Positions 331 through 40,406 of a stretch of DNA of 51,548 bases are shown piece after piece. A program made the translations under genes and the position numbers. The stretch is from Escherichia phage SKA49. Position 1 is the first letter of the stretch. Every line of letters starts with the position of its first letter. The notes beneath the pieces are model-generated. The model was not told the origin of the DNA, made no database searches, and worked only from the letters and a program-made list of their open reading frames with translations. The stretch lies in sequence record NC_079180.1. One strand, 5' to 3'.

Positions 331-2445
331 ATGACTAACGAAGAATACCGTGCACTGGCTGCTGATGGCGCTCGCTTGAAAGAAGAAGGCCAAGGTTGGA
401 AAGACGTGCTCGATACGATGGACCGTTGCAACCAGATGGTAGATGAAATCACCTCCGTTACACAAACCGAAACTAAAACCGAAACTAAATTGGAGACTCG
501 CAAAATGACAACTATCTCAACTCAAACTATCAAATCCGTTGTCCCTGCTATCACTGCTCTGGTATATCGTGCCAAAGAGAAACAGAACTACATGCAGCCT
601 CAGACCTGTGCTATTGCTGCTCTTGCAATCTTTAAGATGATGACCTCATTCACTCGTGATGACGTTGTTCCTGCCATTGCGATGGTTGAGCTGGCTTCTG
701 CTTCTATTGCTGATGCCAACCGCTACAACAACGACTTGAAAGCAATGCACTATGTTGACCCAGCTATCAACCTCATTGGTCTGGCTAAGCACTTCGGCTT
801 CATTACCATGAACGAAGACAAGTCATTCCAACAGACTGACACATGGGTTGAACTGGTTACAACCAAAGACACAGCAGTGCCATTCACTGAGCGTGTTACA
901 TCTGAATCTCGTCGCAAGCCTTTCGTTAAAGGTGGCAAAGTTAAGCCATCCAAAACTTTGAAAGCTGCAATCGAATTCCTGCAAGATACTGAGTACCATG
1001 TGGAGACTGAGATGGTTCGCATCATCCAGTCCATGATTGAACAGCGTACTTATGGTGGCTTGCAGATGCCAGAAGCAATCCAGACTGAACTCCATGTTTG
1101 GAACAATGCTGTAGCAATGATGAATCAGGACACACTGTATTCTGACTACTTTGCTGACAACCGTGGTCGCCTGTATCATGTAGCATGTGCTGGTCCTAAC
1201 CCACAATCCTCTGACTTTGCTCGTTGCTTGTATTCTCACAATGTTGAGAACATCGTTAAGAAGTTTAACGAAGATGGTTCTACTACCATTGCATACAACA
1301 TGTTCATGGCAGAGCTGGAAGATATTTCCGGTGGTGAATGGTGCAGTGCTAAACGTCTGACCTATGTTGCTCAGAATCCAGCTGGTTCACTTGCTCGCAT
1401 GATGAACATGCCTAAAGCTGAACGTCCTTCTAAGCCATTCACTTATGTTCGTCTGGCTCTGGATTGGTTCAAGTTTGAGACTACAGGTGAATGCGATTCT
1501 CGTGTAGGCTTTGGCTTAGATGCTAAATGTTCTGGTACTCAATATCTGGCATTCATTGCTGGTAACATGGAAATGGCTCGTGCAACAGGTCTGGTTGATT
1601 CTGAGACTAAAGCATCTGACCCATACCAGTTGAGTCTTCGTGAACTGTTGAAGCTGCTGGACAAGTCTTCAATGAAACCTTCTGTTGAAATCATGGATGA
1701 ATTCTTGAACCCTAAAGCTGGTCGTAAGTTTATCAAAACTCCGTACATGGCTATTCAATATGGTGGTGGTAAAGCTGCATTAACTGGTTCATCTGACTTC
1801 ATTAGCTACATGACAGAAGCGCTCCAGATTCCTATGGAGAAAGCTGAGGCATTTGCTGAACTGTGTGTAGAAGCAATCCATAACGCATTGGGTGCTAAGA
1901 TTAACATGTTCATCGAGAAAGCTGCTGATGCTGCATACAACCGTTGTGTTGAACTCAACAAAGAGTACATCACATATCGTCACACTGATGGTCAGGTTGT
2001 AATGAAGCCTTGCTTCCCATCTCGTGAAATCTGTGAGGCATTCAGCATTCGTGTTGACTCACAAACTCGTGTTATCTTTGGCCAGATTCAGGAGAATAAG
2101 CCTTGGACCATTCGTGAATCCAATCCAACTAAAGAAGAATTCAAGCGTACTTTCGTTGTTAACTACATTCAAGGTATTGACGCATTGGTTGCTCGTACTG
2201 TTGCAGTTAAGGCTAAAGAAGCTGGTCTTCGTGGCTTCACTTCAATCCATGATTGTTTCCGTTGCTGTCTGGCAGATGCTCCACGTATGATGGAAGTTAT
2301 TCGTGCAGCATATGTTGAAATCTTTGTAACCAACAATCAATTCGAGAATCTGTCTAAGCAACTCGGTGGCATTCAGATGTATCATGAGAACATCGTAACC
2401 GAAGAGCTTCTGATGAGCGAACACGCTTACTACTTCTGTCAATAA
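331..2445 (+). CDS. T7-type single-subunit DNA-dependent RNA polymerase (compact, 704 aa)
   Basis: Motif A-like FGLDAKCSGTQYLA, motif B-like GRKFIKTPYMAIQYGGG, motif C TSIHDCF with catalytic Asp; GGAG RBS before ATG. Confidence 0.85.
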   Translation: MTNEEYRALAADGARLKEEGQGWKDVLDTMDRCNQMVDEITSVTQTETKTETKLETRKMTTISTQTIKSVVPAITALVYRAKEKQNYMQPQTCAIAALAIFKMMTSFTRDDVVPAIAMVELASASIADANRYNNDLKAMHYVDPAINLIGLAKHFGFITMNEDKSFQQTDTWVELVTTKDTAVPFTERVTSESRRKPFVKGGKVKPSKTLKAAIEFLQDTEYHVETEMVRIIQSMIEQRTYGGLQMPEAIQTELHVWNNAVAMMNQDTLYSDYFADNRGRLYHVACAGPNPQSSDFARCLYSHNVENIVKKFNEDGSTTIAYNMFMAELEDISGGEWCSAKRLTYVAQNPAGSLARMMNMPKAERPSKPFTYVRLALDWFKFETTGECDSRVGFGLDAKCSGTQYLAFIAGNMEMARATGLVDSETKASDPYQLSLRELLKLLDKSSMKPSVEIMDEFLNPKAGRKFIKTPYMAIQYGGGKAALTGSSDFISYMTEALQIPMEKAEAFAELCVEAIHNALGAKINMFIEKAADAAYNRCVELNKEYITYRHTDGQVVMKPCFPSREICEAFSIRVDSQTRVIFGQIQENKPWTIRESNPTKEEFKRTFVVNYIQGIDALVARTVAVKAKEAGLRGFTSIHDCFRCCLADAPRMMEVIRAAYVEIFVTNNQFENLSKQLGGIQMYHENIVTEELLMSEHAYYFCQ

Positions 2446-2453
2446 GAGAAACA

Positions 2454-2497
2454 GGGCTGTCATCGAAAGGTGATGGCCCTTTCTTTATTCTTTATTA
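2454..2497 (+). terminator. intrinsic terminator after RNAP gene
   Basis: Hairpin GGGCTGTCAT-CGAAAG-GTGATGGCCC (with G-T pairs) followed by TTTCTTTATTCTTTATT. Confidence 0.55.
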
Positions 2498-3300: not shown

Positions 3301-3508
3301 ATATTGGGATAAAACCCTTTATTTAAATCATTTAGTTTATTAATTAAATGGTCGGTTTTCTGTACATAGGTATTCAGCTGTTTGTGCCAAATACAAACAA
3401 GTTGGCTGCTTCTACAGAACTCCAGTGCTACAAATGTTCGTGCCAATCTGCTGCAATTTATCTCATTTGGCGGGGTAATATTGTATTAGGTTGGTACGTC
3501 ATTATTTC

Positions 3509-3529
3509 GATTAGTTGCATGTGAATAAG
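3509..3529 (+). promoter_or_regulatory. degenerate promoter-like motif GATTAGTTGCATGTGAATAAG
   Basis: Partial match to the ACATTAGTTGGATGTGAAG consensus, upstream of the early gene cluster. Confidence 0.3.
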
Positions 3530-6994: not shown

Positions 6995-7013
6995 ACATTA
7001 GTTGGATATGAGG
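6995..7013 (+). promoter_or_regulatory. phage promoter-like motif ACATTAGTTGGATATGAGG
   Basis: Conserved motif about 70 nt upstream of gene 7084. Confidence 0.55.
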
Positions 7014-7083: not shown

Positions 7084-7464
7084 ATGGCACAATATTCAGA
7101 TGTAAACACTGGCATTATCGGTCCTAACGGCTTCAAGAAAGACCCAAAACATCCTGACATTCGTGGACGTATTAACGTTGACGGAATCTGGTATTGGGTA
7201 TCCGGTTGGAACAAGCAAGCAAATGGTAATGAGTTTACCTCACTTGCATTAACCATCATGACCCAAGAACAGGTCGATGAAATGATGCGTAAGCGTGAAG
7301 AGAAAGCTAAAGCCAAAGCTCAACCTCAAGCTGCCGCTCAACAGCAACAGCCTCGACAGCAACCTTCCGCACAACAGCAAGCTCCTGCTCAGCAACAAGC
7401 TCCGCAGTCGTCTGCATACAACCCAAATGAACCACAGGACTTTGACAGCGACATTCCGTTCTAG
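7084..7464 (+). CDS. small protein with bacterial-SSB-type C-terminal tail (ends NEPQDFDSDIPF); candidate mini-SSB or SSB-tail mimic
   Basis: Trp/Gly-rich N-terminal domain, Q/A/P-rich linker, C-terminal acidic tip ending DIPF as in bacterial SSB. Confidence 0.5.
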   Translation: MAQYSDVNTGIIGPNGFKKDPKHPDIRGRINVDGIWYWVSGWNKQANGNEFTSLALTIMTQEQVDEMMRKREEKAKAKAQPQAAAQQQQPRQQPSAQQQAPAQQQAPQSSAYNPNEPQDFDSDIPF

Positions 7465-7585: not shown

Positions 7586-8062
7586 ATGGCAAATAAATTT
7601 GTCGAAATACCTGCCAACTTGGTTAAAGCTGGCGACGTATTAGTATACAGCAACAGGGAATATTTAATCGTAAAAGTTCTGCGATTTAGTTCTGTGGTTC
7701 AACTCCAATATTCCGGAGGATACTACAATTTTGAGTTTGGGCGCATAGTAAAAGTGTTGGACAGGCCACCAGCTTCGGGAACTCCAACAATCGAGTTCCC
7801 TAACCAAATAAATCCAGTATTCATTCCTGTGGAGAACAACATGGAAACTTTAAATATCCAAAATGCAATCGAAGCACAACGTATTCTTCTGCAAAAGCTG
7901 GAGCAAATGCTTGATTTAACACAGCTTCCTCCAACAGAAGATGGCAAGATGGCAATTGGCAATGCATCAATTCGCGTGGACAAGGCAACAGTTGTTAAAG
8001 CCGCACGCGATGAAATGAAAGCTGCCGCAAGCAAATCCGCAGAGCTTATCAAGAAATTATGA
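7586..8062 (+). CDS. hypothetical protein (158 aa)
   Basis: ATG with GAGGA RBS; in frame with track ORF 7574..8062. Confidence 0.55.
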   Translation: MANKFVEIPANLVKAGDVLVYSNREYLIVKVLRFSSVVQLQYSGGYYNFEFGRIVKVLDRPPASGTPTIEFPNQINPVFIPVENNMETLNIQNAIEAQRILLQKLEQMLDLTQLPPTEDGKMAIGNASIRVDKATVVKAARDEMKAAASKSAELIKKL

Positions 8063-10334: not shown

Positions 10335-10353
10335 ACATTAGTGGGATTTGATT
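10335..10353 (+). promoter_or_regulatory. phage promoter-like motif ACATTAGTGGGATTTGATT
   Basis: Preceded by CTGAA as in other copies; intergenic. Confidence 0.45.
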
Positions 10354-10476: not shown

Positions 10477-10495
10477 ACATTAATTGGAATTGAAG
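10477..10495 (+). promoter_or_regulatory. phage promoter-like motif ACATTAATTGGAATTGAAG
   Basis: Preceded by TCTGAA; intergenic, second copy in the same spacer. Confidence 0.45.
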
Positions 10496-12465: not shown

Positions 12466-12484
12466 ACATTAGTTGGATGTGGAA
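12466..12484 (+). promoter_or_regulatory. phage promoter-like motif ACATTAGTTGGATGTGGAA
   Basis: Best consensus copy; about 75 nt upstream of the codon-optimised gene 12560. Confidence 0.6.
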
Positions 12485-12559: not shown

Positions 12560-12898
12560 ATGGCTAAGATTGTAACCGTAACTCAGTACGAAGCTAACGA
12601 TGGTTCCCTGTTCCTGACCGAAGCAGAGTGTAATGCACATGACTTCAAACTGGAAAACGGTGCTAAAATTGAGAAAGCTGCCGAAGCGTACCTGAACACC
12701 GTTGGCGCTATCGACCGTTCTCGCTCCATGCAGAAGAACACCATCGAGCAGTTCCTGGCATTCTACCTGCCGTGGGTTGAATCTGGTGAGCCGGAAGTTG
12801 AGCGTACTAAGTTCGATACTCCGAAAGAAGCTAAAGTTGCTGACGCAAGTGTTGCAGAAGCTGCCGAAGCTGCTGTTGAAGAAGCTCCGGTATTCTAA
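12560..12898 (+). CDS. small acidic protein with host-optimal codon usage (112 aa)
   Basis: AAGG RBS; codons dominated by CTG/CCG/CGT/GGT; strongly acidic, C-terminus AEAAEAAVEEAPVF. Confidence 0.7.
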   Translation: MAKIVTVTQYEANDGSLFLTEAECNAHDFKLENGAKIEKAAEAYLNTVGAIDRSRSMQKNTIEQFLAFYLPWVESGEPEVERTKFDTPKEAKVADASVAEAAEAAVEEAPVF

Positions 12899-15786: not shown

Positions 15787-16437
15787 ATGATTACTGCAAC
15801 ACTCGTTGACCACATGGGCAGCGACCTCACCACTGTTAATGCTGCACGAGTTTCTTATGGTGCAGAGTCGCATGAAATATCTTTACGTGACGAGAAGCTG
15901 ATTGAGTTTCTTGCAAAGCATAAGCACATTACGCCGTTTCGCCACGCACAGGTAACATTGCGTTGCAAAGCTCCAATCTTCATTGCACGTCAGCTTGGCA
16001 AACATCAAACTGGCTTTAGTTGGAATGAGGTTAGCCGTCGTTACAAAGATGGCGAAGCAATCTCTATTGAATGCTTTGTACCAGGTGTTGTATTTGGTCG
16101 TCCTGAAAAGTTGATGACTCAGACTGCACAACCGTTGCCACAAGATTTTGCTGACGATATTCATTATCGCATGGAAAGCCATAACAAGGCTTGCATCGCA
16201 GAGTATGAAACGTTAATTGGTTTGGGGATTGCCCCAGAGCAAGCTCGCATGGTTCTCCCACAATCCATGATGACTGAATGGATTTGGACTGGCTCACTTT
16301 ATGGCTGGGCATCTATGTATAATCAACGTTCCTCCGAACATGCGCAATATGAAGTTCGCTTGTTTGCGGAAGAAGTGAATAAAATCATGTCAGAACTGTT
16401 CCCAATTTGTTGGAAGGCTCTGACCAACCAGGAATAA
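15787..16437 (+). CDS. thyX: ThyX-like flavin-dependent thymidylate synthase (divergent)
   Basis: ARQLGKHQTGFSWNEVSRRY resembles the ThyX RHRx7S signature, with KHQ in place of RHR; N-terminal AARVSYG block. Confidence 0.55.
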   Translation: MITATLVDHMGSDLTTVNAARVSYGAESHEISLRDEKLIEFLAKHKHITPFRHAQVTLRCKAPIFIARQLGKHQTGFSWNEVSRRYKDGEAISIECFVPGVVFGRPEKLMTQTAQPLPQDFADDIHYRMESHNKACIAEYETLIGLGIAPEQARMVLPQSMMTEWIWTGSLYGWASMYNQRSSEHAQYEVRLFAEEVNKIMSELFPICWKALTNQE

Positions 16438-16441
16438 ATAA

Positions 16442-18205
16442 ATGAACGTCAAGCAATGTGTGGCTAAGATTAAGCACGATGTACCAGACTGTAAATCCAC
16501 ATCTGGCAAGTCTTTACAGGTTTGGTTGAATGTCGATGAAGCTGGTAATAAGAACTTCTCTGGTTACTGCTTTGCGTGTGGCGTTCTAGTACCAAATCCT
16601 TATGGCAATAATCCGGAGAACATTCCAGAGATTAAAGTCAAAACTCCAGAAGAAATTCAGGAAGAAGTTGATGAAATCACTGCTTGTCCTCCGTTTGATT
16701 TAACCCATCGCAGCATCGAGCCAGAATTCTGGAAAGCTGCTGGTGTCCGACTTCTGTATTCAGAGTATGATGGAAAGACTCCAAATGCTCTGGCACATGG
16801 CTACACCAAAAATGGTAAACTTGTTCGTTGGAAGATTAAACTTCTGAACAAGAAAGTTATGTGGTCAGTTGGCGACACTCAGGGTAACGACCCTTACAAC
16901 TGGATGGCTGCAAAAGCAATTGGCGGTAAGACACTGTTCATCACAGAAGGTGAAGAAGACTGCATCGCATTGCGTCAAATCCTCAAAACTATGAACCGTG
17001 GTGGTGCATATGAAGATTTGGATTTTGCTGTAATTAGTTTGAGTGACGGAAGTGATTCCGTACACAAATGCTTGTCGCCAGTTGCAGAAGAAATTAAGCA
17101 ACGTTGGGAGCAGGTTGTTATCGTATTTGATGATGATGAACCTGGACGTAAAGCTGCAAAAGAAGCGTGTCGATTGTTGCCTGGTGCAATGATTGCAACA
17201 CTTCCAGCTAACGATGCCAACGATTGTTTGAAGCGTGGCTTGCTCAAAGCTACTCAATCTGCTGTTGTGTTCCGTGCTGCTCGTCCTCTGCCTACAGCAC
17301 TTGTCAACAAAGAACTTCTTATGGAAGAGCTTGATGACGAGGTTGAACAGGGTGTGGACTATCCTTGGCCCAAGCTAACTGACTTAATGTTTGGTCAACG
17401 TCGAGCCGAAGTTATTACAATCGGTGGTGCAGAAGGTGGTGGTAAAACTACCTTGTCCCGTCAGATTGTGCATCACAACATTACCAAGCACGATTGGGGA
17501 GTGTTTACTGCATACATGGAGGAAACTCCTACAGAAACATTGCGCCGAATGGCTGGCCTTAATGACAACTTGCCATATTGGGAACCTGCGTTTACTCGTG
17601 AAGACCCTCGATATGATGAAGCTAAGTTCCGTCAAACTGCTGCGAAGATGCTTCGTAACATGGAGATTTGGGACCGCAAGCAAGCTGGAGAAGACCCTTA
17701 TGAAACCTGGGATGGGTTAAAGACGATTCTTCGTCAGATTGGACCAGACATTGATATGTTTGTCCTTGATAACTTAACCTACTTATCGGAAGGGATTTCT
17801 GCGTCAGAGAAGAACGACTTTCTGGGCAAGCTGTATGCAGACATTACAAAGTTAGCAGACCAGTACCAGTTCCACGTGAATATTCTGTCGCACCTTAACC
17901 CTGTGGCAAAAGGTCAACGACCTCATGAGGATGGTGGACGTATTAAGAAGTCAGACTTTACTGGCTCACGTGCTGCTGCTAAATATTCTCATGGTATGTT
18001 CGGCTTTGAGCGTAATAGCCAGGCAGTTGACCCAAACTGTTCTATTATTCGTTCCATCAAAGCTCGTAAGAGTGGTAAAACAGAAGGCTTCAAGACGTAT
18101 TATGACACCGAATCTGGTCGAATTATTCAACGTTCTTGGGATGACTCTCTGTTCGAAACTAAAGAGATTGTTCAACTTACTAAGAAGAACGGTCCACACC
18201 AATAA
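16442..18205 (+). CDS. DNA primase/helicase (zinc-finger, TOPRIM and DnaB-like helicase domains)
   Basis: Zn-binding SGYCFACGV; TOPRIM LFITEGEEDCIAL and VFDDDEPGRKAA; Walker A GGAEGGGKTT; Walker B-like MFVLDNLT. Confidence 0.85.
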   Translation: MNVKQCVAKIKHDVPDCKSTSGKSLQVWLNVDEAGNKNFSGYCFACGVLVPNPYGNNPENIPEIKVKTPEEIQEEVDEITACPPFDLTHRSIEPEFWKAAGVRLLYSEYDGKTPNALAHGYTKNGKLVRWKIKLLNKKVMWSVGDTQGNDPYNWMAAKAIGGKTLFITEGEEDCIALRQILKTMNRGGAYEDLDFAVISLSDGSDSVHKCLSPVAEEIKQRWEQVVIVFDDDEPGRKAAKEACRLLPGAMIATLPANDANDCLKRGLLKATQSAVVFRAARPLPTALVNKELLMEELDDEVEQGVDYPWPKLTDLMFGQRRAEVITIGGAEGGGKTTLSRQIVHHNITKHDWGVFTAYMEETPTETLRRMAGLNDNLPYWEPAFTREDPRYDEAKFRQTAAKMLRNMEIWDRKQAGEDPYETWDGLKTILRQIGPDIDMFVLDNLTYLSEGISASEKNDFLGKLYADITKLADQYQFHVNILSHLNPVAKGQRPHEDGGRIKKSDFTGSRAAAKYSHGMFGFERNSQAVDPNCSIIRSIKARKSGKTEGFKTYYDTESGRIIQRSWDDSLFETKEIVQLTKKNGPHQ

Positions 18206-18270: not shown

Positions 18271-20205
18271 GTGTTGTATCCTTGGGAAAATATGTATGCC
18301 AGTGACATTGAAACAACTGGCCTGTTGGAGCAAATGCGCAAGCAAGCTGCACCACGTCTTCACAACATCGGATATATTGATGTTCTGACTCGTGAAGAAA
18401 CTGTAATAGAATGGACCGACAGAAAATCTATCCAGGCATTTCTGGATACAGGCCCAACACTAATCATGCACAACGGCGCAACCTTTGACTTTGAAGCACT
18501 GAGGTTCCTTGGTTACGACGTTTCAAAATGTACACTAGTTGATACCTTGTTTATCAGTTGGTATCTGCAACCTCGTCGTGTTAAGCACGGTTTAGAAGGT
18601 TACGGCGAAGAGTTTGGTGTGCCAAAACCAGTCATTGAGGATTGGGAAAATCAAACTCAAGAAGAGTACAACCATCGTGTGATGGAAGACTGCAAGATTC
18701 AGTTGAAGCTGTGGGAACAGCAATACATTCAACTCTTGAAGATTTATAAATCTCCTAGCGAAGTTAAGCGCTTCGTTGAATATCTGATGACAAAAGCTCG
18801 TCAACAAGTTATTCAACAACGTACTCGCTGGAAGTTAAACATTGAGAAGGCATTGGCATTTAAGGCCAAGCTGGAACCAATGATTAAAGAGAAGACGGAC
18901 GCATTGGAAGCATCAATGCCACGTATTCCAGAATATGTTATCAAAACCCGTCCAGCTAAATGCCACAAGTTGAACGGACAACTGTCTGCCGCTGGTATTA
19001 AGTGGAAGGCTATATGTGATGCGAACGGTTTGGATTGGAAAGACCCAGAGATAGGTATCAGAATCTTAAAGGGCTATAAAGAACCGAACGCTGGTTCTCA
19101 CGTACAGATTAAGGATTGGTTGTTCAGCTTAGGTTGGGAACCAGAAACATTTAAGTTTGACCGCAATAAGGAAACAGGTGAAACCCGCCAGATTCCTCAA
19201 ATCACTGTGAAGGATGAAGATGGCAATCCTGAAATATGTCCAAGCCTGCATAAGTTGGCGGAAAGAAACCCCGAATCTGGTATTCAACATCTTATTGGGA
19301 TGGGCGTGTATAAACACCGTCTCTCTGTTGTTAATGGTTTCCTTCGCGACGTCGATGAAGACGGATACCTTACTGCACGATGTGGTGGCCTTACCAATAC
19401 TTTACGTCTTAAACACCGCGAACTTGTTAACCTCCCTTCTATTCGTGTATTTGGCGGTGAAGAACTGCGTTCAATGTTGGAAGCGTGGCGCGAAGACTAC
19501 GAACAGTTAGGCTCTGACTTGTGCTCACTGGAAGACCGTTGTAAACACCACTTCCAATGGATGTATGACCCTGAATACGTTAAGAAGCAGTTGGCACCAG
19601 ACTATGATGCTCACCTTGCAATTGGCGTAATTGGTGGATTTATTACAGAACAGGAATCTCAGGACCACAAGGACGGAATTAAGAAGTGTAAACAACGTCC
19701 AATGTTTAAGACCACAAACTATGCTTGTCAGTATGGTGCTGGTGTGCCAACTGTAGCTCGTTCTGCTGGCTGTGACCAGACTACTGCTGCACGACTGCAT
19801 AAAGCATATTGGGACTTGAACTGGTCTATTAAAGAGATTGCTGCAAACACCAAAGTTATCACAGTTGATGGTCAGATGTGGCAACAGAATCCAGTAAACA
19901 AATTCTGGTATTCATTGCGTACAGAGAAAGACCGCTTCTCCACATTGTGTCAGGGTACTGGTGCATATGTGTTTGATGTTTGGTGTAACAACATCATTGC
20001 AATTTGTAATGAACGTTGGGGATGTGACCCACTTCTGTCTGGACAATTCCACGATGAATTGATTCTCCAGGTTAAGAAAGGTTTCCGTGATTTGTGGACG
20101 GACTTGCTTAATGAAGCAATGGACCGAACCAACAAAGAACTTAAACTCAATCGTGATTGTGCATGTGATGTACAATTTGGCGACAACTACGCGGAGATTC
20201 ACTAA
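18271..20205 (+). CDS. family A DNA polymerase with 3'-5' exonuclease motifs
   Basis: Exo I DIETTGL, Exo II HNGATFDFEAL, motif B KQRPMFKTTNYACQYG, motif C FHDE; GTG start with GGAG RBS (alternative ATG 18292). Confidence 0.85.
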   Translation: MLYPWENMYASDIETTGLLEQMRKQAAPRLHNIGYIDVLTREETVIEWTDRKSIQAFLDTGPTLIMHNGATFDFEALRFLGYDVSKCTLVDTLFISWYLQPRRVKHGLEGYGEEFGVPKPVIEDWENQTQEEYNHRVMEDCKIQLKLWEQQYIQLLKIYKSPSEVKRFVEYLMTKARQQVIQQRTRWKLNIEKALAFKAKLEPMIKEKTDALEASMPRIPEYVIKTRPAKCHKLNGQLSAAGIKWKAICDANGLDWKDPEIGIRILKGYKEPNAGSHVQIKDWLFSLGWEPETFKFDRNKETGETRQIPQITVKDEDGNPEICPSLHKLAERNPESGIQHLIGMGVYKHRLSVVNGFLRDVDEDGYLTARCGGLTNTLRLKHRELVNLPSIRVFGGEELRSMLEAWREDYEQLGSDLCSLEDRCKHHFQWMYDPEYVKKQLAPDYDAHLAIGVIGGFITEQESQDHKDGIKKCKQRPMFKTTNYACQYGAGVPTVARSAGCDQTTAARLHKAYWDLNWSIKEIAANTKVITVDGQMWQQNPVNKFWYSLRTEKDRFSTLCQGTGAYVFDVWCNNIIAICNERWGCDPLLSGQFHDELILQVKKGFRDLWTDLLNEAMDRTNKELKLNRDCACDVQFGDNYAEIH

Positions 20206-20450
20206 TGGTTGTTGTATCTATATTCGACAAAGTGGACCATTTACACTTTGTCAATAAAGGCGAAGACGCACGGGAAGCTGTGCTGTCTGTAATTACCGAG
20301 AATGCTGAAACATTATTTGGAAGTGATTCTGCTACCAATTCAGTGTATCAGGCATTCATTAAAACTTTATCTGGTCCTGTCGTCAATGAGCAAGAGTTAA
20401 TCTCTTGTATGAACGACCTGGACTTCTCCCTAGTTATCACTCAACTGTAA
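20205..20450 (+). CDS. hypothetical protein (81 aa)
   Basis: ATG overlaps polymerase stop; track ORF. Confidence 0.5.
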   Translation: MVVVSIFDKVDHLHFVNKGEDAREAVLSVITENAETLFGSDSATNSVYQAFIKTLSGPVVNEQELISCMNDLDFSLVITQL

Positions 20451-20466
20451 TTTAAAGGTACTCAAA

Positions 20467-21333
20467 ATGGCATTTGCTGCTCCTACACTGGCCTCGAACA
20501 AGACTCCTTCTGCTGCACCATTACTGGAAGCGGGTGGTTATCCTGCTCGTGTTTGCCGTATTATCGACCTGGGCTTACAGCCTGGTTCTGCTAAATATCC
20601 TACCCCGTCTCTGAAACTTCTGGTGACTTTCGAACTGCTCGACGAGTACATGAAAGAAGTTGACAGTGAAGGTAAAATGGTCATGGTTCAAGACCCAGAC
20701 GAAGATGACGGCATCATGATGGCGAAGAATCTTGAAGACAAGCCGCGTTGGTTTGACTTTGAGTTTACCTATAATGCTGACGGCTTCATGGGAGAGAACT
20801 CCCACATCTACAAATTCGCTAAGGCGATTGATGCACTGGAAGTTAAACCTAATCTGGAACAAGGCATTCAGGGCCATCCTGCCAAGAACCTGCCGGATTG
20901 GTTGGGCGAACCTCTGATTGTTGGCATTGTTCAGTATACCAAGCAGTCAGGTAAGAATGCGGGTCAGGTTGCGAACAAAGTTGCTACCTTCTCTCCGATG
21001 AAATCCAAAGAGAAGAAAGAAGCCAAAGCTCTGGTTAACCCGACTGTCTTCTTCGACATGTCCGAGCCGGACCTGGAAGTATTCAACAAACTGCCAGGTG
21101 GCGAATCTCCGTATGCAATCAAGAACCGTATCACTTCCGGTGTTGATTTCTACAAGACTAAGCTGTCTGCACTGTTAGGTGGCAAACCTGCTGATGATGG
21201 TGCTGTACCGAATCAGGCTTCTGATGAAGAAGTTGATGCAGCTATGAAAGCTGAACTAGAAGCACAAGCTGCTGCGAAAGCACAGCGTGAAGCTGAAGGT
21301 GGTGCTGCTGGCGGCACAGGTATGCCCTTCTGA
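20467..21333 (+). CDS. abundant replication-module protein of unknown function (288 aa); candidate ssDNA-binding or annealing protein
   Basis: Host-optimal codons; C-terminus ends Gly/Ala-rich then MPF; followed by strong terminator. Confidence 0.55.
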   Translation: MAFAAPTLASNKTPSAAPLLEAGGYPARVCRIIDLGLQPGSAKYPTPSLKLLVTFELLDEYMKEVDSEGKMVMVQDPDEDDGIMMAKNLEDKPRWFDFEFTYNADGFMGENSHIYKFAKAIDALEVKPNLEQGIQGHPAKNLPDWLGEPLIVGIVQYTKQSGKNAGQVANKVATFSPMKSKEKKEAKALVNPTVFFDMSEPDLEVFNKLPGGESPYAIKNRITSGVDFYKTKLSALLGGKPADDGAVPNQASDEEVDAAMKAELEAQAAAKAQREAEGGAAGGTGMPF

Positions 21334-21347
21334 TTGTTGAACAATAT

Positions 21348-21372
21348 GGCTCCTTCGGGAGCCTTTAATTTT
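21348..21372 (+). terminator. rho-independent terminator
   Basis: GGCTCC-TTCG-GGAGCC hairpin followed by TTTAATTTT. Confidence 0.7.
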
Positions 21373-21381
21373 GGAGTTTAA

Positions 21382-21810
21382 ATGAAGTGTTGTCGCATTT
21401 GTGGTGAATCCAAACCTCTTACTGACTTTGGTTGCACCAAGAAGAGTAAGGATGGTCGTGATACTATGTGCAAATCTTGCAAGAATGTGAGAAGCAGACA
21501 GCATTACAATCTAAACTCTAGTAGGATAAAAGAGCATCAACGAACTTACCTGGCAAGCAATAAAGAAACCAAGTATGCGTCGTCTGCTGCATATCGTAAT
21601 GGCTTCCCAAACAAAATTCGTGCACACCGTATGGTGAATGATGCGCTGCGAAGAGGGAAGATTTCAAAACAACCTTGTGAGTGCTGCGGAAACTTATCAG
21701 CGATTGCTCACCACGATGATTACCTCAAGCCAATGGTTGTACGTTGGCTGTGCAGAAAGCACCACGCTGAATGGCACAGAGATAATGGAGAAGCACTAAA
21801 TGGCAAGTAA
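21382..21810 (+). CDS. HNH endonuclease
   Basis: N-terminal CxxC...CxxC and CECCGNLSAIAHHDDYLKPMVVRWLCRKHHAEWH. Confidence 0.65.
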   Translation: MKCCRICGESKPLTDFGCTKKSKDGRDTMCKSCKNVRSRQHYNLNSSRIKEHQRTYLASNKETKYASSAAYRNGFPNKIRAHRMVNDALRRGKISKQPCECCGNLSAIAHHDDYLKPMVVRWLCRKHHAEWHRDNGEALNGK

Positions 21811-22825
21811 GAAGAAAATCCTTTTGCTGGTCGATTTTGATATGGTGGCATTTAGTCATTGTGCGGCAGAAGAATTTGGGAAAGAGCCAGAAGATATAAA
21901 TTTCTCAAAGATTCAAATGTCAATGGACTCTAAGATGGAGTTCTTGTCGAAGCGTTCTGGCGCAACTCATGTTATGGGTTTCGTATCTCCTTCTAAGACA
22001 ATGCGAAACGTGTTTGCCGAAAATTATAAAGGCAATCGAGATAACGTGTGGCGTCCAGAAAACTTAAAGAATGCCAAGGCCCACTTGCTTGTTGCATGGA
22101 ATGGGTATTGGATGAAAGGTCTGGAAGCAGATGACCTTCTCGCTGTATTCGCACGTCATGAATACGAAATGACAATGGGTAAACGTAATGAGATTAAGAG
22201 CCTCACTCGTATTGGTCCGTGCACATATGACGAAGTCTGGATTGCATCGTTGGACAAAGACTTGCGCCAAATCGGGCAGAATGGTGGTGTTGGTCCAGTA
22301 ATCAAACATTACCAATGGGAACGAGAAACCCAGGGTATTGGTGAGAAGGTTGTAACTCCTCAGGATTACGGCGAACTCAAACTAATCATCAAGGACAATG
22401 GCAAGTCGAAGAAGAAAGAAGTCAAAGGCAATGGCCCTAAATTCTTCTTGCATCAATTGCTTATTGGCGACTCAACGGATAACGTTATGGGTTGCGGAGT
22501 TCTTGAAGAAAGAATTTACAAAACTGGTGCCAAAGCCGGAGAAACTTATTTCCGTCGTGATGGCATTGGTGCAGTTGCTTCATTCGAAATGCTGGATGGT
22601 ACAACATCCTATGCAGAAGGTTTGAAGAAAGTTATTGGTGCATACATTATGCGCTTCGGAGATGGTTGGGAACAAGAGCTGCTCAAAGTGGGCCGTCTTG
22701 TTTACATGCACCATCAAATTGAAAAGGGTAATTGTGTTCGCTTGTGGCATTACAAGAACATTAACGAATACTTTGACCTTAAAGAGAATCGTATCCTCAC
22801 TCAAGAAGAGTATCTCCAGAAATAA
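21800..22825 (+). CDS. 5'-3' exonuclease / flap endonuclease
   Basis: ILLLVDFDMVAFS, GLEADDLLAVFA and LIGDSTDNVMGCG resemble Pol I 5'-exonuclease motifs. Confidence 0.8.
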   Translation: MASKKKILLLVDFDMVAFSHCAAEEFGKEPEDINFSKIQMSMDSKMEFLSKRSGATHVMGFVSPSKTMRNVFAENYKGNRDNVWRPENLKNAKAHLLVAWNGYWMKGLEADDLLAVFARHEYEMTMGKRNEIKSLTRIGPCTYDEVWIASLDKDLRQIGQNGGVGPVIKHYQWERETQGIGEKVVTPQDYGELKLIIKDNGKSKKKEVKGNGPKFFLHQLLIGDSTDNVMGCGVLEERIYKTGAKAGETYFRRDGIGAVASFEMLDGTTSYAEGLKKVIGAYIMRFGDGWEQELLKVGRLVYMHHQIEKGNCVRLWHYKNINEYFDLKENRILTQEEYLQK

Positions 22826-22836
22826 TTGGAGTTGGA

Positions 22837-23361
22837 ATGGCTTACGGTTATTGTGGAACGGAAGCCAAGTTTGTATCTTGGCTCCAATCTGCTATTCGAA
22901 GTGTTTGGTCTAAACACCCAAGCAAACTCGCGCTGATACAATCTCGACGCATTGCATTGAAGGTCGGCGATTCAAAGAAACCAATCTTCCACATTCAATG
23001 CTACCATTGCAAGAAGTTGTATAAGCTCAAAGAGATTGAAGTAAACCACAAAGTTCAGGTTGGTGGGCTCCTTAAGTTGGAAGACCTACACCGCTTTGTG
23101 GACAACCTTCTACTGGTTCAGCCAGAAGATTTGGAATTGCTGTGTAAAGATTGTCACGGCATTATTACATACATGGAACGATATGGTGTATCCCGACGTG
23201 ATGCAGTCATTGAGAAGAAGTGTATTGCATTTGCCAAATTAACTGACGAAGAGCAAATTGCCAAGTGCAATCTTGCTAAAATAGAGCCAGTTCCTAAAAC
23301 CAAAATCGGACGCAAGAATGCTGTTCGAGAATACCTGAGAAAGAATCTTAATGTCTATTAA
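22837..23361 (+). CDS. HNH-like endonuclease domain protein
   Basis: CYHCKK...EVNHKVQVGG...LCKDCHG arrangement. Confidence 0.55.
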   Translation: MAYGYCGTEAKFVSWLQSAIRSVWSKHPSKLALIQSRRIALKVGDSKKPIFHIQCYHCKKLYKLKEIEVNHKVQVGGLLKLEDLHRFVDNLLLVQPEDLELLCKDCHGIITYMERYGVSRRDAVIEKKCIAFAKLTDEEQIAKCNLAKIEPVPKTKIGRKNAVREYLRKNLNVY

Positions 23362-24106
23362 GCTCCTCGATGACGGTACAAGATACACAAAGGCTCACGC
23401 ACATGATTGGGAAGACCCAGACTGCCGTATCAAAGGGCGCTGTGAACTCTTCATCAAGATTGACGGAATTCGAGCTATCCGTAATAAATCAGGTAGTGTC
23501 TGGAGTCGTAATTCCAAACCCCTACCTCATTTGGACCACTTACAGTTCAGAGATGCTGAGATATTCCGTAATAGTTGGAATGAGACTTCTAGCATCCTCG
23601 GACGTATTGACCCGCCAAGCATCCCACTAACCCAGGACAATGTGTATGAGTTGAGTGATGGTGCTGTTGACCCACGCCTGTACATCGGCTGGTGCAAAGA
23701 CCCAAGCAATGAAAACCTTAAGGCATTGATGGATAAATATCTGGCGCTTGGTCATGAAGGTATCATTGTCCGTGATGCAAGAGGTAAATGGTGGAAGATT
23801 GTACCATATAAATACGCCGATGTGAAGATTACTGGTATGAAAGAAGGTACTGGTGCTCTTAAAGGTATGTGTGGTTCTATCTCCTCGAACTACGGCAGTG
23901 CTGGTTCAATGGTGAAAGATTGTCTGGCAGACCACGGCATTCCAGAATCTAACACATTGATTCGTAAGTGGTTGTGGGAACATCGCCACGAACTAATTGG
24001 TTCGATTATGCAAGTTCGATATCGTGAGAAGACAGAAGCTGGTAAGTTCCGGTTCCCGTCACTCGTCCGTTTACGTGCAGACAAAAGTGAGGAAAGTTTT
24101 GATTAA
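23351..24106 (+). CDS. ATP-dependent DNA ligase (compact)
   Basis: Motif I FIKIDGIRA (KxDG); LGHEGIIVRDARGKWWKIVPYKYADVKI resembles motifs IV-V. Confidence 0.75.
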   Translation: MSIKLLDDGTRYTKAHAHDWEDPDCRIKGRCELFIKIDGIRAIRNKSGSVWSRNSKPLPHLDHLQFRDAEIFRNSWNETSSILGRIDPPSIPLTQDNVYELSDGAVDPRLYIGWCKDPSNENLKALMDKYLALGHEGIIVRDARGKWWKIVPYKYADVKITGMKEGTGALKGMCGSISSNYGSAGSMVKDCLADHGIPESNTLIRKWLWEHRHELIGSIMQVRYREKTEAGKFRFPSLVRLRADKSEESFD

Positions 24107-24725
24107 ACGATTAGCTGTTATTCTCAATGGACCTCCTGGCTGCGGCAAAGACACCATTGCAAATAAGATTGTTGCTGCTGAGGAACCTTACTTCCTCGGC
24201 AAACGCAAATTCATTAAACACCAGTTTAAGGATGCACTGTATGAGCATACTGCCAAACACTTTCAAGTTGATGTGGACAAGTTTATCCACTACGCTTCGG
24301 ACCGTGACCTCAAAGACTCTATCTCCCTTGCAGGTCTTGGTGGCAGAACACCTCGTCAGGCTCTTATTCACGTTAGCGAAGACGTGTATAAACCTCGCCA
24401 CGGACAAGACTACTTCGGTAAGGTTGAGGCTGCTCGTGTTGAAGAACTCGCGGGGCGTATGGGTGGCATTATTAATGTCATTTATCCCGATGGCGGTTTT
24501 GGTGATGAAGTCGTTGCCATTGAGTCTGCTTATGATTTTGTCCTCATTGTGCGTTTGCATCGTGATGGTTTTGATTTCACGGGCGATTCTCGCAGATACA
24601 TCAACCTCCCAGACACACCTACCCGCGTAACAGTGGATGAACATCTAGTTGATGGTAAAGTGGGTGATTCTGTATTCAAAGTGTTCAACTGGATTGAACG
24701 CGTAACTTATCAAGTAGAGAAATAA
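24099..24725 (+). CDS. deoxynucleoside monophosphate kinase-like P-loop protein (start uncertain: TTG 24099 or GTG 24087)
   Basis: P-loop LNGPPGCGKDT resembling T4 gp1 GxxRSGKDT; GAGGA before TTG; in frame with track ORF 23997..24725. Confidence 0.55.
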   Translation: MIKRLAVILNGPPGCGKDTIANKIVAAEEPYFLGKRKFIKHQFKDALYEHTAKHFQVDVDKFIHYASDRDLKDSISLAGLGGRTPRQALIHVSEDVYKPRHGQDYFGKVEAARVEELAGRMGGIINVIYPDGGFGDEVVAIESAYDFVLIVRLHRDGFDFTGDSRRYINLPDTPTRVTVDEHLVDGKVGDSVFKVFNWIERVTYQVEK

Positions 24726-24727
24726 TC

Positions 24728-25327
24728 ATGTCTTGTATGACCCAAGTTGTTGCAGTTAAACGAGTGCATCCTAATGCGAAATTACCTGTGTACGCTACTG
24801 CTGGCGCTGCTGCTGCTGACGTTTGCACTATCTCCGATAGCACTGTTGTTATCAATCCCGGCTGCTCTGCTGTTTTCGATACAGGCCTCCAATTCGAGAT
24901 TCCAGTTGGATACGAACTCAAAGTACATAGCCGTTCTGGTCATGGCTTTAAGTCTGGTATTCGCTTGGCAAACTGCACAGGAATTCTGGACTCCGATTAT
25001 CGTGGTAATCTTATGGTTAAGCTGCACAATGACTCGGACACAGCCTTTGTGGTTCAACCAGGTGAACGTATTTGTCAGGTGCAAGTTAGTAAAGCTACTC
25101 AACACCATTTCGTTGAAGTTGACAGCTTGAATGAAACTGCTCGTGGTGTAGGTGGCTTTGGTTCTACTGGACGTGTAGAAGTTGGTCAGTACGACCCAAG
25201 TCTTATCGTTCCATCAAACGGCTCACACTCGCACAGCATGTCTGTTGTTGGCGAAGGCACAACGGCCTTTGTTTCAGGAACAACTTCAATTGGTACCCAC
25301 ACTCGCGGGGCCGAACGTTACAAATAA
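24728..25327 (+). CDS. dut: dUTP pyrophosphatase
   Basis: dUTPase motifs RSGHG, GILDSDYRG, GERICQ, RGVGGFGSTG. Confidence 0.9.
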   Translation: MSCMTQVVAVKRVHPNAKLPVYATAGAAAADVCTISDSTVVINPGCSAVFDTGLQFEIPVGYELKVHSRSGHGFKSGIRLANCTGILDSDYRGNLMVKLHNDSDTAFVVQPGERICQVQVSKATQHHFVEVDSLNETARGVGGFGSTGRVEVGQYDPSLIVPSNGSHSHSMSVVGEGTTAFVSGTTSIGTHTRGAERYK

Positions 25328-25345
25328 ATCTGGAACCTATCTGAA

Positions 25346-25675
25346 ATGAAACTGTCCTCACCTGTTGTAGTAAATAGCCGCAAAGTTAGATTTGCATATC
25401 TCAAGTCCAATGTCACCTCCACTGGTGGCGGGACTTATCTCACCCGTGCACTTGCAGTTCGCAACGAAACAGGTGCGGATGTTATCGTTTTCATGCTCCC
25501 TCATGGTGAAAACACAATCAAGAACGTCGAACGTATCAAGCGTGGGCGCGAAGATTTAATGTCGGCTGTTAAGCCGCTGATACTGCCATTTAAGATTGTG
25601 GTGGTTGTTGGTTCTACCCAAACATATCTGGAAGATTTCTATAAAGATATGGCCTGGAGCGATATTAAATATTAA
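25346..25675 (+). CDS. hypothetical protein (109 aa)
   Basis: Track ORF upstream of packaging module. Confidence 0.5.
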   Translation: MKLSSPVVVNSRKVRFAYLKSNVTSTGGGTYLTRALAVRNETGADVIVFMLPHGENTIKNVERIKRGREDLMSAVKPLILPFKIVVVVGSTQTYLEDFYKDMAWSDIKY

Positions 25676-32845: not shown

Positions 32846-33235
32846 ATGATAACACTAACCGATTTGGTTAAACGTTATCCGGCAATGGCTGACATGACCC
32901 CAGAGCGTTTTGATATCTTAGTTGAAGATGCGAAACTTATCATGGGGACAATCGAATCGCGTTGGTGTGGGTTTTATGACCCAGCTATGGCATCACTTGT
33001 GGCGCATTGGTCTGCAACAATTGACGACCTAATGCCTGGTGATGCCGCAATGCCAGCTATGCCTGTTAGTCGTACCGATGTGGACGATGTTCAGGTAGAG
33101 TTTAGCGACCGAATCATTTCAACAATTCCTTATGTTGAAGCTGATTTCATGTCTACTGTGTACGGTCAACGTTACTTGCAATGGCGGCGAATGGCATTTG
33201 CTGGGCCGAGGGTTAGCCCTGGGTCACAGTTTTGA
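32846..33235 (+). CDS. head-tail connector/adaptor protein (putative)
   Basis: Track ORF, position only. Confidence 0.45.
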   Translation: MITLTDLVKRYPAMADMTPERFDILVEDAKLIMGTIESRWCGFYDPAMASLVAHWSATIDDLMPGDAAMPAMPVSRTDVDDVQVEFSDRIISTIPYVEADFMSTVYGQRYLQWRRMAFAGPRVSPGSQF

Positions 33236-39600: not shown

Positions 39601-40374
39601 GAGCAAGCTGGTTCGGTGGTAGAAGCGGGTAGAAACTCTGACTTTGCCGAAGGTATGGCCCAGTCGGAAATGTTGCAGGGAAGCCGCGCACGGATGCTGC
39701 CGAGCTACAACGTGCCACAAAGTGTCTTATCTAACGGTGCTTCCGTATTCGAGGCTGGCAGTGATTCACTTGATAGTGTACGCACTGGATTCAATAATAC
39801 GCGAGAATTTGCTGGAAGTGTTTACGACTTTATCGCCCAGGAAGAATCTGGCGGTCGTGAATATAACAAAGATGGTTCTCGTGTAACAAGTCGTACTGGT
39901 GCTCGTGGGATAATGCAGATTCTTCCTTCAACAGCTCGTGACCCAGGATTTGGAATCAGGCCGTCTGATGGAACTCCGGAAGATGATGCACGAGTTGGTC
40001 GTGAATATTATGACGCAATGTACAAGCGTTATGGCGACCACGAAAAGGCAATGGCTGCTTACACCGATGGTCCTGGAACTGTTGACAAAGCTGTTGATAA
40101 GAATGGGCTGGATTGGCTAACTGCTGTTCCTGTACAAGCACAGAATCGCGTCAAAGCATTCCGTGAATGGGCCAAGTCTTCTCAGACTTTGGAAGAAGGT
40201 GCTACAGGGTTTACTCGCAATGGAATGTCGTACGGTCAAACCCAAACTGTTGTTAATGTTAAGATTGATGCTAAGGTCAACAACCAGACTGCTTCTGCTA
40301 CAGTGGCAATTCCTGGTGGTCAGACTGTGACTCAACAAATGAACATGCACAATGGTGCGCAACAAAGAAGATAA
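36649..40374 (+). CDS. tape-measure-like large virion protein with C-terminal lytic transglycosylase domain
   Basis: Transglycosylase motifs QEESGG, GARGIMQILPSTA, AYTDGPGTV; Gly-rich segment; N-terminal Rho_N-like LSVNELIALGSQSGL; mid-region YqaJ-like motifs ITGSTVG...NPY, EHKNP, DQIQFGMHVSG. Confidence 0.6.
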   Translation: MKTMANQKDLMKLSVNELIALGSQSGLTFHAGMKKSHMVQQLSASAASGWLDTNAELMGGSFEDDSLITESLGDSSMISDAAHIAQVLSSAGYTEAFHAAMNGPTHHVEAVHAYMERLGVNTDDVWMHMPKPNPNLPQGSFNMLNAYMRDTLQGHQDIMPEIPGHYAGDIMAEYSTNRGNIADSYNYMAHMYVDREQYSNHEQYARDISRVAKRLEQELPAAFKEVGYTSASNVGNKSAPHISYMDALPQIGSPSIVSGIAHPRAPLNASGLPLGSYGSGINPEYSLTASLTGGTGWSEPSKALYSSISEAVKSAAKVYSGSKGMMNTRHEVSDRDMIMDSATRYTDLEEARSGYENLRSELADEPAYSASSVRAILENTYDKMDSEPVRIPKMKGASQRVEKDSQSTSTEFTAQLGEATNWNSARMRREEIAIANMDSAGFRDVSDYGTGRSESPVRFHDLEQGSQEWLDFRKNYDITGSTVGTFLGNNPYTRPWAGMIDKIGLSRSKEHSDFTKKMFADGHRTEEEARARVGKEFGFDIKQTGAITNDNYPAFMYSPDGLIGDDAIWEHKNPQRAGKFADLLKGDHPDYMDQIQFGMHVSGRSRALFSQTINDETRSQWIEKDEGWYERNRNRLDSVLGRLDAGREFVRNNAGLDREELIAGARSAMTGDGIWKDIRQRSTRGYSAIAGTPEDPFIGSRSSYNPKASYSDYQPNFVMHEQNFPATTGNGDTGNDSMALSVKKGILAAQEENRQKGIGADADFNGKADSMGWDRERFDAANGGGYSGGGGGRGGNFTSGGNYYDDYGRMGGSLAAGIAGGSIGSATNGVMQALMATPAGRMAAVGIGAIQIGNEAAEYMNDFIGNSLDAGVINPNEYSSMSQGLEMLGLNSQQAARLNQTTHSAYNTMLNGDPSAAVNIVRGSRGLLTIGDIRATGGDPVALARIMQERGKERGWSQARIAGAAEMAGLNGMARAYDRTEYSHEQAGSVVEAGRNSDFAEGMAQSEMLQGSRARMLPSYNVPQSVLSNGASVFEAGSDSLDSVRTGFNNTREFAGSVYDFIAQEESGGREYNKDGSRVTSRTGARGIMQILPSTARDPGFGIRPSDGTPEDDARVGREYYDAMYKRYGDHEKAMAAYTDGPGTVDKAVDKNGLDWLTAVPVQAQNRVKAFREWAKSSQTLEEGATGFTRNGMSYGQTQTVVNVKIDAKVNNQTASATVAIPGGQTVTQQMNMHNGAQQRR

Positions 40375-40380
40375 GGAGTT

Positions 40381-40406
40381 GGGGAGAAATCCCCAGCTTT
40401 CCTTTT
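40381..40406 (+). terminator. intrinsic terminator (GGGGA-GAAA-TCCCC then AGCTTTCCTTTT)
   Basis: GNRA tetraloop hairpin with T-rich tail directly after tape-measure stop. Confidence 0.55.

Follow-up and report, generated by a model that had tools for sequence, protein, structure and literature searches.

A putative single-stranded DNA-binding protein with a predicted OB fold in the T7-type replication module of Escherichia phage SKA49

The gene and its expression signals

The genome of Escherichia phage SKA49 (sequence record NC_079180.1) was analysed over its whole stretch of 51,548 nucleotides, hereafter referred to as the window, with a focus on the gene at positions 20467-21333 (+) coding for a protein of 288 amino acids (aa). 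The genome is of the phiEcoM-GJ1-like coliphage type (Chaseviridae), and phiEcoM-GJ1-like phages are myoviruses whose RNA polymerase is T7-like and whose replication module is of the T7 type. The 288-aa product is a homolog of gp39 of phiEcoM-GJ1 (Cleopatravirinae, Carltongylesvirus), annotated "hypothetical protein". Its identity to the nearest proteins in phiEcoM-GJ1-like coliphages (ST32, flopper, Bp7 and others) is 95-99.6%, the BLAST match spanning only residues 1-257 in most of those records. A preliminary description of the locus had proposed the protein as a candidate for the main single-stranded DNA (ssDNA)-binding or annealing protein of the phage. The evidence bearing on a role as ssDNA-binding protein (SSB) of the replisome is presented here.

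The open reading frame (ORF) is real: it opens with ATG, comprises 288 codons and stops with TGA at 21331-21333. Since a Shine-Dalgarno-like AAAGG can be read from the sequence 8 nt upstream of the ATG (20454-20458, +) and Met1 is invariant in a 55-sequence alignment of homologs, the start codon is secure. The gene lies downstream of the DNA polymerase gene as first described, 262 nt from its end, with one 81-aa ORF intervening.

The codon adaptation index (CAI) was calculated with the weights of E. coli highly expressed genes (Sharp & Li 1987), and the values are approximate. With a CAI of 0.512 the gene ranks sixth among 50 ORFs of the window. The five ORFs above it include genes corresponding to the major head and tail sheath genes of phiEcoM-GJ1, and its value groups with those of the GJ1 major head, tail sheath and RNA polymerase counterparts. 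It is also the highest of the replication module, whose other genes range from 0.25 to 0.38 (dUTPase 0.38, polymerase 0.34, primase/helicase 0.34), in agreement with the host-optimal codons initially reported. A virion protein as the cause of the high CAI is not favoured, as the phiEcoM-GJ1 record labels other products "virion structural protein" and not gp39, which is a weak indication.

A phage promoter consensus, ACATTAGTTGGATGTGA, was derived from the nine promoters annotated in phiEcoM-GJ1. It has eight matches in the window, all on the + strand, for about 0.21 expected by chance (251-267, 2562-2578, 3508-3524, 6995-7011, 10335-10351, 10477-10493, 12466-12482 and 20310-20326). The match at 20310-20326 (+), ACATTATTTGGAAGTGA, is a phage-RNA-polymerase promoter-like site with two mismatches to the consensus. 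It sits 141 nt before the ATG of the 288-aa gene, within the 3' part of the upstream small ORF. The GJ1 record likewise places "putative phage promoter 8" directly upstream of gp39, and a phage promoter directly precedes gp21 of phage LUZ19, whose product is a remote homolog presented below. Another of the eight matches lies upstream of the RNA polymerase gene itself. The site at 12466-12482 belongs to a 112-aa ORF (12560-12898, +; phrog_17419, function not assigned) with the highest CAI of the window, 0.724; its product is probably a very abundant middle protein.

The gene is followed by an intrinsic terminator (21348-21372, +) that starts 14 nt past the stop codon and is formed by a 6-bp GC-rich stem with a UUCG loop, GGCTCC-TTCG-GGAGCC, and then TTTAATTTT. 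The terminator is base-for-base identical in phiEcoM-GJ1, and Erwinia phage Y2 has a different, unrelated and stronger one at the same position. The terminator had been presented as the strongest in the window, which is incorrect: its hairpin of -12.0 kcal/mol is weaker than those of three other sites, at about 2445-2486 (-23.4 kcal/mol), 33200-33230 (-19.1 kcal/mol) and 40373-40404 (-18.5 kcal/mol). The hairpin at about 2445-2486 (+) follows the RNA polymerase gene, and the one at 40373-40404 (+) is directly followed by ACATTAGTT, the beginning of a promoter-like sequence.

The 288-aa protein may be abundant in this phage, as originally suggested, and this gains indirect support from the promoter-like site at 20310-20326 and from the measured abundance of LUZ19 Gp21. 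Phage promoter, favourable codons and terminator would together make it a highly expressed protein of the middle class, which would fit the stoichiometric coating of DNA.

Protein architecture and predicted fold

The 288-aa protein has a mass of 31.0 kDa and a pI of 4.85. An AlphaFold2 run on the 55-sequence alignment returned a model with a pLDDT of 87.6 and a pTM of 0.75, in which pLDDT is low only in a linker (about residues 241-250) and in the last eight residues or so. The model predicts an OB-fold core at aa 23-176 (20533-20994, +). Its elements are the strands 23-38, 48-65 and 88-102, a helix at 113-120 and the strands 149-158 and 168-176, i.e. three strands, helix and two strands, the canonical OB order. 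The best-conserved residues are Y25, R28, G36, Q38, E56, K92, P93, R94 and W95. Placed on the predicted fold, Y25/R28 and K92-P93-R94-W95 would provide the kind of aromatic-plus-basic set that an ssDNA-binding face needs. Between OB strands 2 and 3 lies an acidic insertion (aa 64-87, about 24 residues, pI about 4; 20656-20727, +) that is only present in the enterobacterial (Cleopatravirinae-type) clade and is a gap in all other aligned relatives.

The core is followed by a conserved basic helical subdomain (aa 177-240, pI 9.3; 20995-21186, +) with the motif LVNP..F.D..PD.EVF..LP, modelled as a compact helical region at about residues 180-236. The C-terminal tail (aa 241-288, pI 4.05; 21187-21330, +) consists of an acidic SDEEVD, a helix and the end GGAAGGTGMPF. 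The tail helix (253-278) is rich in Ala, Glu, Lys and Gln and was modelled with confidence. Within the helical subdomain, the motif F..LP.W.Q..IK (aa 201-228, 21067-21150) resembles the villin headpiece (FANLPLWKQQNLKK). Weak Pfam VHP matches recur in 11 relatives, and hhalign aligns F..LP.W.Q..IK at a pairwise E-value of 0.026 with a probability of 1.9%. This is taken as the resemblance of a short motif and not as homology, and it may be a convergence on a small helical module.

Structure prediction, one of the checks proposed at the outset, followed by structure search, gave an OB fold whose nearest solved relatives are ssDNA- or DNA-binding OB proteins. The first Foldseek match in the PDB is PrgE (E 7.7e-4), followed by PriB, SsbA/SsbB and PRD1 P12, and the best solved-structure matches as a whole are DNA-binding OB folds (PrgE, LEF-3, RPA, PriB and SSBs). 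The OB-fold core of T7 gp2.5-type SSBs is thus found in the predicted structure. The searches based on sequence returned little: Pfam has no family for the protein, the LRR and adenylate-cyclase matches at an E-value of about 0.2 being noise, and neither Pfam nor NCBIfam models of the canonical bacterial SSB (PF00436/TIGR00621) match it. The PDB chain sequences gave nothing meaningful with the single protein or with either family profile. The PHROG matches, phrog_862 (7.7e-43) and phrog_6599, are both of "unknown function".

The C-terminal tail signature

The preliminary description had drawn attention to a C-terminal Phe, as in T7-type SSBs. The sequence does end in ...GTGMPF, and an aromatic residue is terminal or penultimate in 234 of the 248 full-length relatives (94%), the commonest endings being PF, PY, PW, DW and EW. 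Over the last 25 residues the charge averages -4.5 and is net negative in 89% of these 248 relatives. An aromatic end on a mostly acidic, variable tail is therefore a family-wide trait and not a one-off. The same signature is found in E. coli SSB (DDDIPF) and in T7 gp2.5 (DEDGDF), and Phe is likewise the last residue in 107 of the 120 members of the proven HK620 SSB clade. The comparison with T7-type SSBs stands for the terminal Phe but not for ancestry, as no homology to T7 gp2.5 was found.

Family relations and the curated family name

The family is very large: a HMMER scan with the family profile retrieved 4,261 cluster representatives (50% identity) at E<=1e-3, of which 1,599 at E<=1e-10. 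All 100 phage records listed, out of 166, lack a functional name. The NCBIfam model NF046043 ("phage replication initiation protein, NGO0469 family") matches residues 18-210 of the 288-aa protein with an E-value of 2.8e-16. The score of 59.6 bits is below the curated cutoff of 75 bits, as are those of Y2 gp52 (55.4 bits) and pAh6.2TG gp43 (61.3 bits); RIO-1 gp22 (140 bits), IME180 (118 bits) and Klyazma (98 bits) score above it. The model matches 87 of 87 diverse relatives sampled. Judged from these sequence matches, the 288-aa protein is a true homolog of the NF046043 family though it remains under the equivalog cutoff, and it differs from that family by its 24-residue acidic insertion and a longer tail. 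A scan of a genome collection for the prophage context of NGO0469-type members only returned phage-like contigs of about 50 kb binned into metagenome-assembled genomes.

Read literally, the name of NF046043 would make the 288-aa protein a replication initiation (origin-recognition) protein, and the breadth of the matches, with Zobellviridae members passing the cutoff, speaks in favour of this reading. In print, the name could nevertheless be traced only to a 2007 annotation table for a gonococcal prophage, without experiment. This table reports weak BLAST similarities to a nanovirus Rep (26% identity, 109 aa) and to a phage primase (32% identity, 87 aa), and the same paper also guesses "primase". 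In addition, an OB barrel with an SSB-type tail is predicted and not a winged-helix, HUH or AAA+ initiator fold, and the high codon adaptation and the abundance of a homolog suit a stoichiometric protein better than an initiator. An initiator is thus a very improbable identity for this protein, and the NCBIfam name appears unfounded.

A different annotation was given to the Zobellviridae member RIO-1 gp22, called "putative ssDNA binding protein" by the depositors, with a note citing HHpred similarity to CDD PHA02030. Literature searches for an SSB assignment of this gene in Chaseviridae or Zobellviridae returned none. LUZ19 Gp21 is a member of PHA02030 and aligns with the family profile in hhalign with a probability of 98.2% (E 3.7e-14, 182 columns), over the OB core and the helical subdomain. 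The local gene order is identical in LUZ19, i.e. polymerase, small ORF, phage promoter, gp21 and exonuclease. Gp21 differs from the 288-aa protein by its size (349 aa, about 24% identity) and by a long Ala/Pro/Val-rich tail without a terminal aromatic residue. On 2-D gels it ranks among the two most abundant phage proteins of the early/late-early (middle) class (PMC3604761).

The effects of Gp21 on its host suggest another function for the family, that of an abundant host-shutoff or transcription-modulating protein, perhaps acting by DNA binding, in the manner of N4 SSB in its activation of late transcription. Expressed alone, Gp21 stops the growth of P. aeruginosa, and the authors did not assign a function to it (PMC3604761). 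Its expression leads to an immediate 20-25% fall in transcription and translation, with DNA replication seemingly unaffected, and N4 SSB as a transcriptional activator is cited among the references of the same paper (PMC3604761). However, over-produced DNA-binding proteins are plausibly toxic in a non-specific manner, which is a matter of reasoning only. The strict synteny within the replication module, kept in distant phage families, points to a core role in replication. It is moreover unlikely that a single transcription target is involved, because the family spans phages with their own RNA polymerase and phages with sigma-like factors. A host-shutoff or transcription-modulating protein is accordingly held to be quite unlikely.

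Conservation of the replication module

The gene belongs to a conserved order of primase/helicase, family-A DNA polymerase, an ORF of 60-100 aa, 288-aa-family gene and 5'-3' exonuclease. This order holds in Chaseviridae of both Cleopatravirinae and Nefertitivirinae (Pectobacterium PM1, Erwinia Y2, Vibrio VPs20 and Aeromonas pAh6.2TG), in Zobellviridae (Pseudomonas IME180, Vibrio 384E50-1, Klebsiella Klyazma and Pseudoalteromonas RIO-1), in metagenomic contigs, in a Hafnia assembly and in the phiKMV-like LUZ19. The Hafnia case is a Chaseviridae-like segment of Hafnia alvei GCA_016103045.1 that has the same module order and lies in a 1.64-Mb bacterial contig beside TerC/TerB genes. The same genes are also found on a 51.8-kb contig of another sample. 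The segment could be a misassembly, a carrier state or an integration.

In the window, the genes of ThyX (15787-16437), primase/helicase (16442-18205) and the T7-type DNA polymerase (family A, DNA_pol_A; 18271-20205) precede the 81-aa ORF (20205-20450, +) and the 288-aa gene. Downstream are found the genes of the 5'-3' exonuclease (21800-22825), an HNH endonuclease (22837-23361), the ligase (23351-24106), a dNMP kinase-like protein (23997-24725) and the dUTPase (24728-25327). An HNH/endonuclease-VII-like gene (phrog_2340; 21382-21810, +) lies between the terminator and the exonuclease gene and is not present in phiEcoM-GJ1. Conversely, the HNH genes gp34 and gp36 that flank the primase/helicase gene of GJ1 are both missing from the window. 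These differences look like homing-endonuclease turnover. The 81-aa ORF has zero Pfam and zero PHROG matches. An ORF of 66-103 aa fills the same slot in GJ1, Y2, IME180, metagenomic contigs, the Hafnia contig and LUZ19, so that the position is conserved but the sequence is not. Even between the window and GJ1 the ORF was swapped (81 aa versus 90 aa for GJ1 gp38, 7698-7970 of the GJ1 stretch), and the sequence shared in this region is limited to the last 25 nt or so before the ATG of the 288-aa gene.

No other SSB of a known type was detected. The OB domain of E. coli SSB, gp2.5, N4 gp45 and the HK620 SSB were searched by tblastn and found neither in the window nor in the pAh6.2TG genome, which is nearly complete, and the annotation of pAh6.2TG contains no SSB. 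The only part of E. coli SSB matched by tblastn is its 10-residue tip, at 7432-7461, within another gene (7084-7464, +).

A second protein with an SSB-type tail

The gene at 7084-7464 is preceded by the promoter-like site at 6995-7011 and codes for an early 126-aa protein. The protein has a Gln/Pro/Ala-rich linker followed by the C-terminal tip DFDSDIPF, which matches the tip of E. coli SSB. In most relatives the tip reads DFDDDIPF, and 33 homologs show no variation at F, D, I, P and F. Most relatives annotate this protein "SSB". Its resemblance to E. coli SSB is limited to the linker and the tip: residues 40-126 align with the C-terminal parts of NCBIfam SSB models, far below cutoff, and the N-terminal 60 residues are predicted to form four strands and a helix, with no clear OB barrel. 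Since Aeromonas phage pAh6.2TG gp34 (25148-25561 of its stretch) has the same layout and ends in TDGDPF, Chaseviridae carry two proteins with SSB-type tails. The 126-aa protein may be a host-SSB-tail mimic or an adaptor, the 288-aa protein then being the probable replisome SSB.

The presence of this protein allows another distribution of roles, in which the 288-aa protein would be a strand-annealing or recombination mediator paired with the adjacent 5'-3' exonuclease and the 126-aa protein or the host SSB would act at the fork. In the relatives compared, the 288-aa-family gene is always immediately upstream of the exonuclease gene, and neither the window proteins that were scanned nor the GJ1 annotation revealed another annealing protein. 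The SSB label of the 126-aa protein and its own promoter-like site would fit such a distribution. On the other hand, the label derives from the linker and the tip alone, the NCBIfam scores and the predicted N-terminal domain being those given above. The Zobellviridae carry the 288-aa family and no homolog of the 126-aa protein was found in the stretches searched (14-19 kb each, not whole genomes). Furthermore, annealing and SSB activities coexist in gp2.5, so that this alternative overlaps with a replisome SSB more than it excludes it. As an exclusive account it is considered rather unlikely.

Comparison with proven SSBs

One known protein comparable to the 288-aa protein is T7 gp2.5, with which it shares an acidic overall charge, a C-terminal Phe (on a tail predicted to be flexible in its linker and tip) and, in the predicted structure, an OB-fold core. 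The job proposed is also that of gp2.5 (and of Enc34 ORF6/DUF2815), namely in a replisome of T7-type polymerase and primase-helicase with a gp6-like exonuclease.

The DUF669, N4 gp45 and HK620 proteins form a second point of comparison. For DUF669 and N4 SSB the case was made that they are OB-fold SSBs, highly diverged and with acidic tails (PMC4889955), and one DUF669 protein is a demonstrated SSB (PMC5928155). A Foldseek search of the BFVD predicted viral structures retrieved DUF669 proteins at E-values of 4.2e-5 and 6.3e-5 with a probability of 1.00. It also linked the model to many uncharacterised podovirus proteins, both sides of these comparisons being predicted structures. The Pfam model of DUF669 (PF05037) has sub-threshold matches in 1 of 55 and 2 of 149 relatives and none for the 288-aa protein; this test is insensitive, as the HK620 SSB itself is unmatched in the same copy of Pfam. 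Like the 288-aa family, the DUF669/N4 gp45/HK620 group long went unrecognised as OB or SSB proteins. The settings differ, DUF669 SSBs being usually found beside Sak4 recombinases and the 288-aa family beside a T7-type polymerase.

The closest solved structure, PrgE of plasmid pCF10 (PDB 8S4S), has an OB fold; its monomers coat DNA "like viral SSBs", and it also binds double-stranded DNA (dsDNA) (PMC11137577). It shares 12-13% identity with the 288-aa protein, with no profile signal. PrgE has 144 aa and no helical subdomain, binds both dsDNA and ssDNA, and is encoded in a conjugation operon. With N4 gp45, the HK620 SSB/DUF669 group and PrgE, the likeness remains at the level of the predicted fold only.

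A putative replisome SSB

The 288-aa gene probably encodes the replisome SSB of the phage, a functional analogue of gp2.5 that would come from a different and very large family. This assignment is made because of the predicted OB fold, the tail signature, the synteny, the lack of a detected alternative SSB and the expression signals. The proposal of a main ssDNA-binding or annealing protein is thus supported by the predicted OB fold, the tail, the conserved synteny and the lack of a canonical SSB homolog in the window and in pAh6.2TG, but its word "main" is uncertain given that an early protein of 126 aa bears the tip of E. coli SSB. As no homology to T7 gp2.5 is detectable, the T7-type analogy would be functional and not ancestral, the family being most likely unrelated to gp2.5 or unrecognisably diverged from it.

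Several observations weigh against the assignment. Homology to each of the proven proteins was rejected in hhalign comparisons, with probabilities of 0.27% for T7 gp2.5 (whose tblastn search of the window was also empty), 0.1% for N4 gp45, 0.1-0.2% for the HK620 SSB/DUF669 clade and 0.3% for PrgE. No PDB sequence matches the 288-aa protein or the family profiles at all. The tail of the window clade is acidic to a small degree only (net charge -1 in the last 25 residues), and the Ala/Pro/Val-rich tail of LUZ19 Gp21 ends in Val. A host-SSB tail tip is borne by a second phage protein (7084-7464), and NCBIfam names the family "replication initiation protein". Finally, LUZ19 Gp21 alone reduces transcription and translation while DNA replication seems unaffected (PMC3604761).

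For the putative replisome SSB, the following mechanism can be proposed. Through the clusters Y25/R28 and K92-P93-R94-W95, with their stacking and electrostatics, the OB core (aa 23-176) would bind ssDNA at the fork. Self-association or a protein contact would be mediated by the basic helical subdomain (aa 177-240). The aromatic-ended tail would dock on the T7-type DNA polymerase, on the primase-helicase or on both, and it may fold back onto the DNA-binding face and thereby regulate binding, as do the tails of gp2.5 and bacterial SSBs. The protein probably also promotes strand annealing, because its gene is always followed by that of a gp6-like 5'-3' exonuclease and a further annealing protein was seen neither among the proteins scanned nor in the GJ1 annotation. 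We infer ssDNA binding, partner docking, annealing and abundance for the 288-aa protein; what the analysis shows directly are the ORF with its context, codon bias, terminator and promoter-like site, the fold as predicted, the tail signature and the relations of homology.

Significance for Chaseviridae and related phages

A broader proposal, more tentative than the assignment itself, is that the family could be the missing replicative SSB of T7-type replisomes in Chaseviridae, Zobellviridae, phiKMV-like phages and thousands of uncultured phages, with a division of labour between two proteins in Chaseviridae. The polymerase and helicase of the phage would be served by the 288-aa OB protein with its phage-specific tail. 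The 126-aa protein would display a perfect copy of the host-SSB tip (DFDDDIPF) and capture or divert the host repair and restart enzymes that interact with SSB. The 126-aa protein is in this respect a testable candidate for the hijacking of the host SSB interaction network.

This is not a new kind of system, and the SSB guess is already present in one GenBank record, that of RIO-1. What is added here is the evidence on the fold, the tail signature across the family, the connection with LUZ19 Gp21 and the doubt cast on the curated family name. Several phages of the Chaseviridae, Zobellviridae and phiKMV-like groups have been used or considered for phage therapy and biocontrol.

If the assignment is true, a single function would propagate to about 4,261 clusters at 50% identity and the NCBIfam name "replication initiation" would be wrong. 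LUZ19 Gp21 would gain a function, and its abundance and toxicity would be explained. The minimal T7-type replisome (polymerase, primase-helicase, SSB, exonuclease and ligase) would be complete for Chaseviridae, Zobellviridae and phiKMV-like phages. Overall, the family would represent a further case in which the SSB solution of an OB fold, a flexible tail and an aromatic tip was kept despite the loss of sequence similarity.

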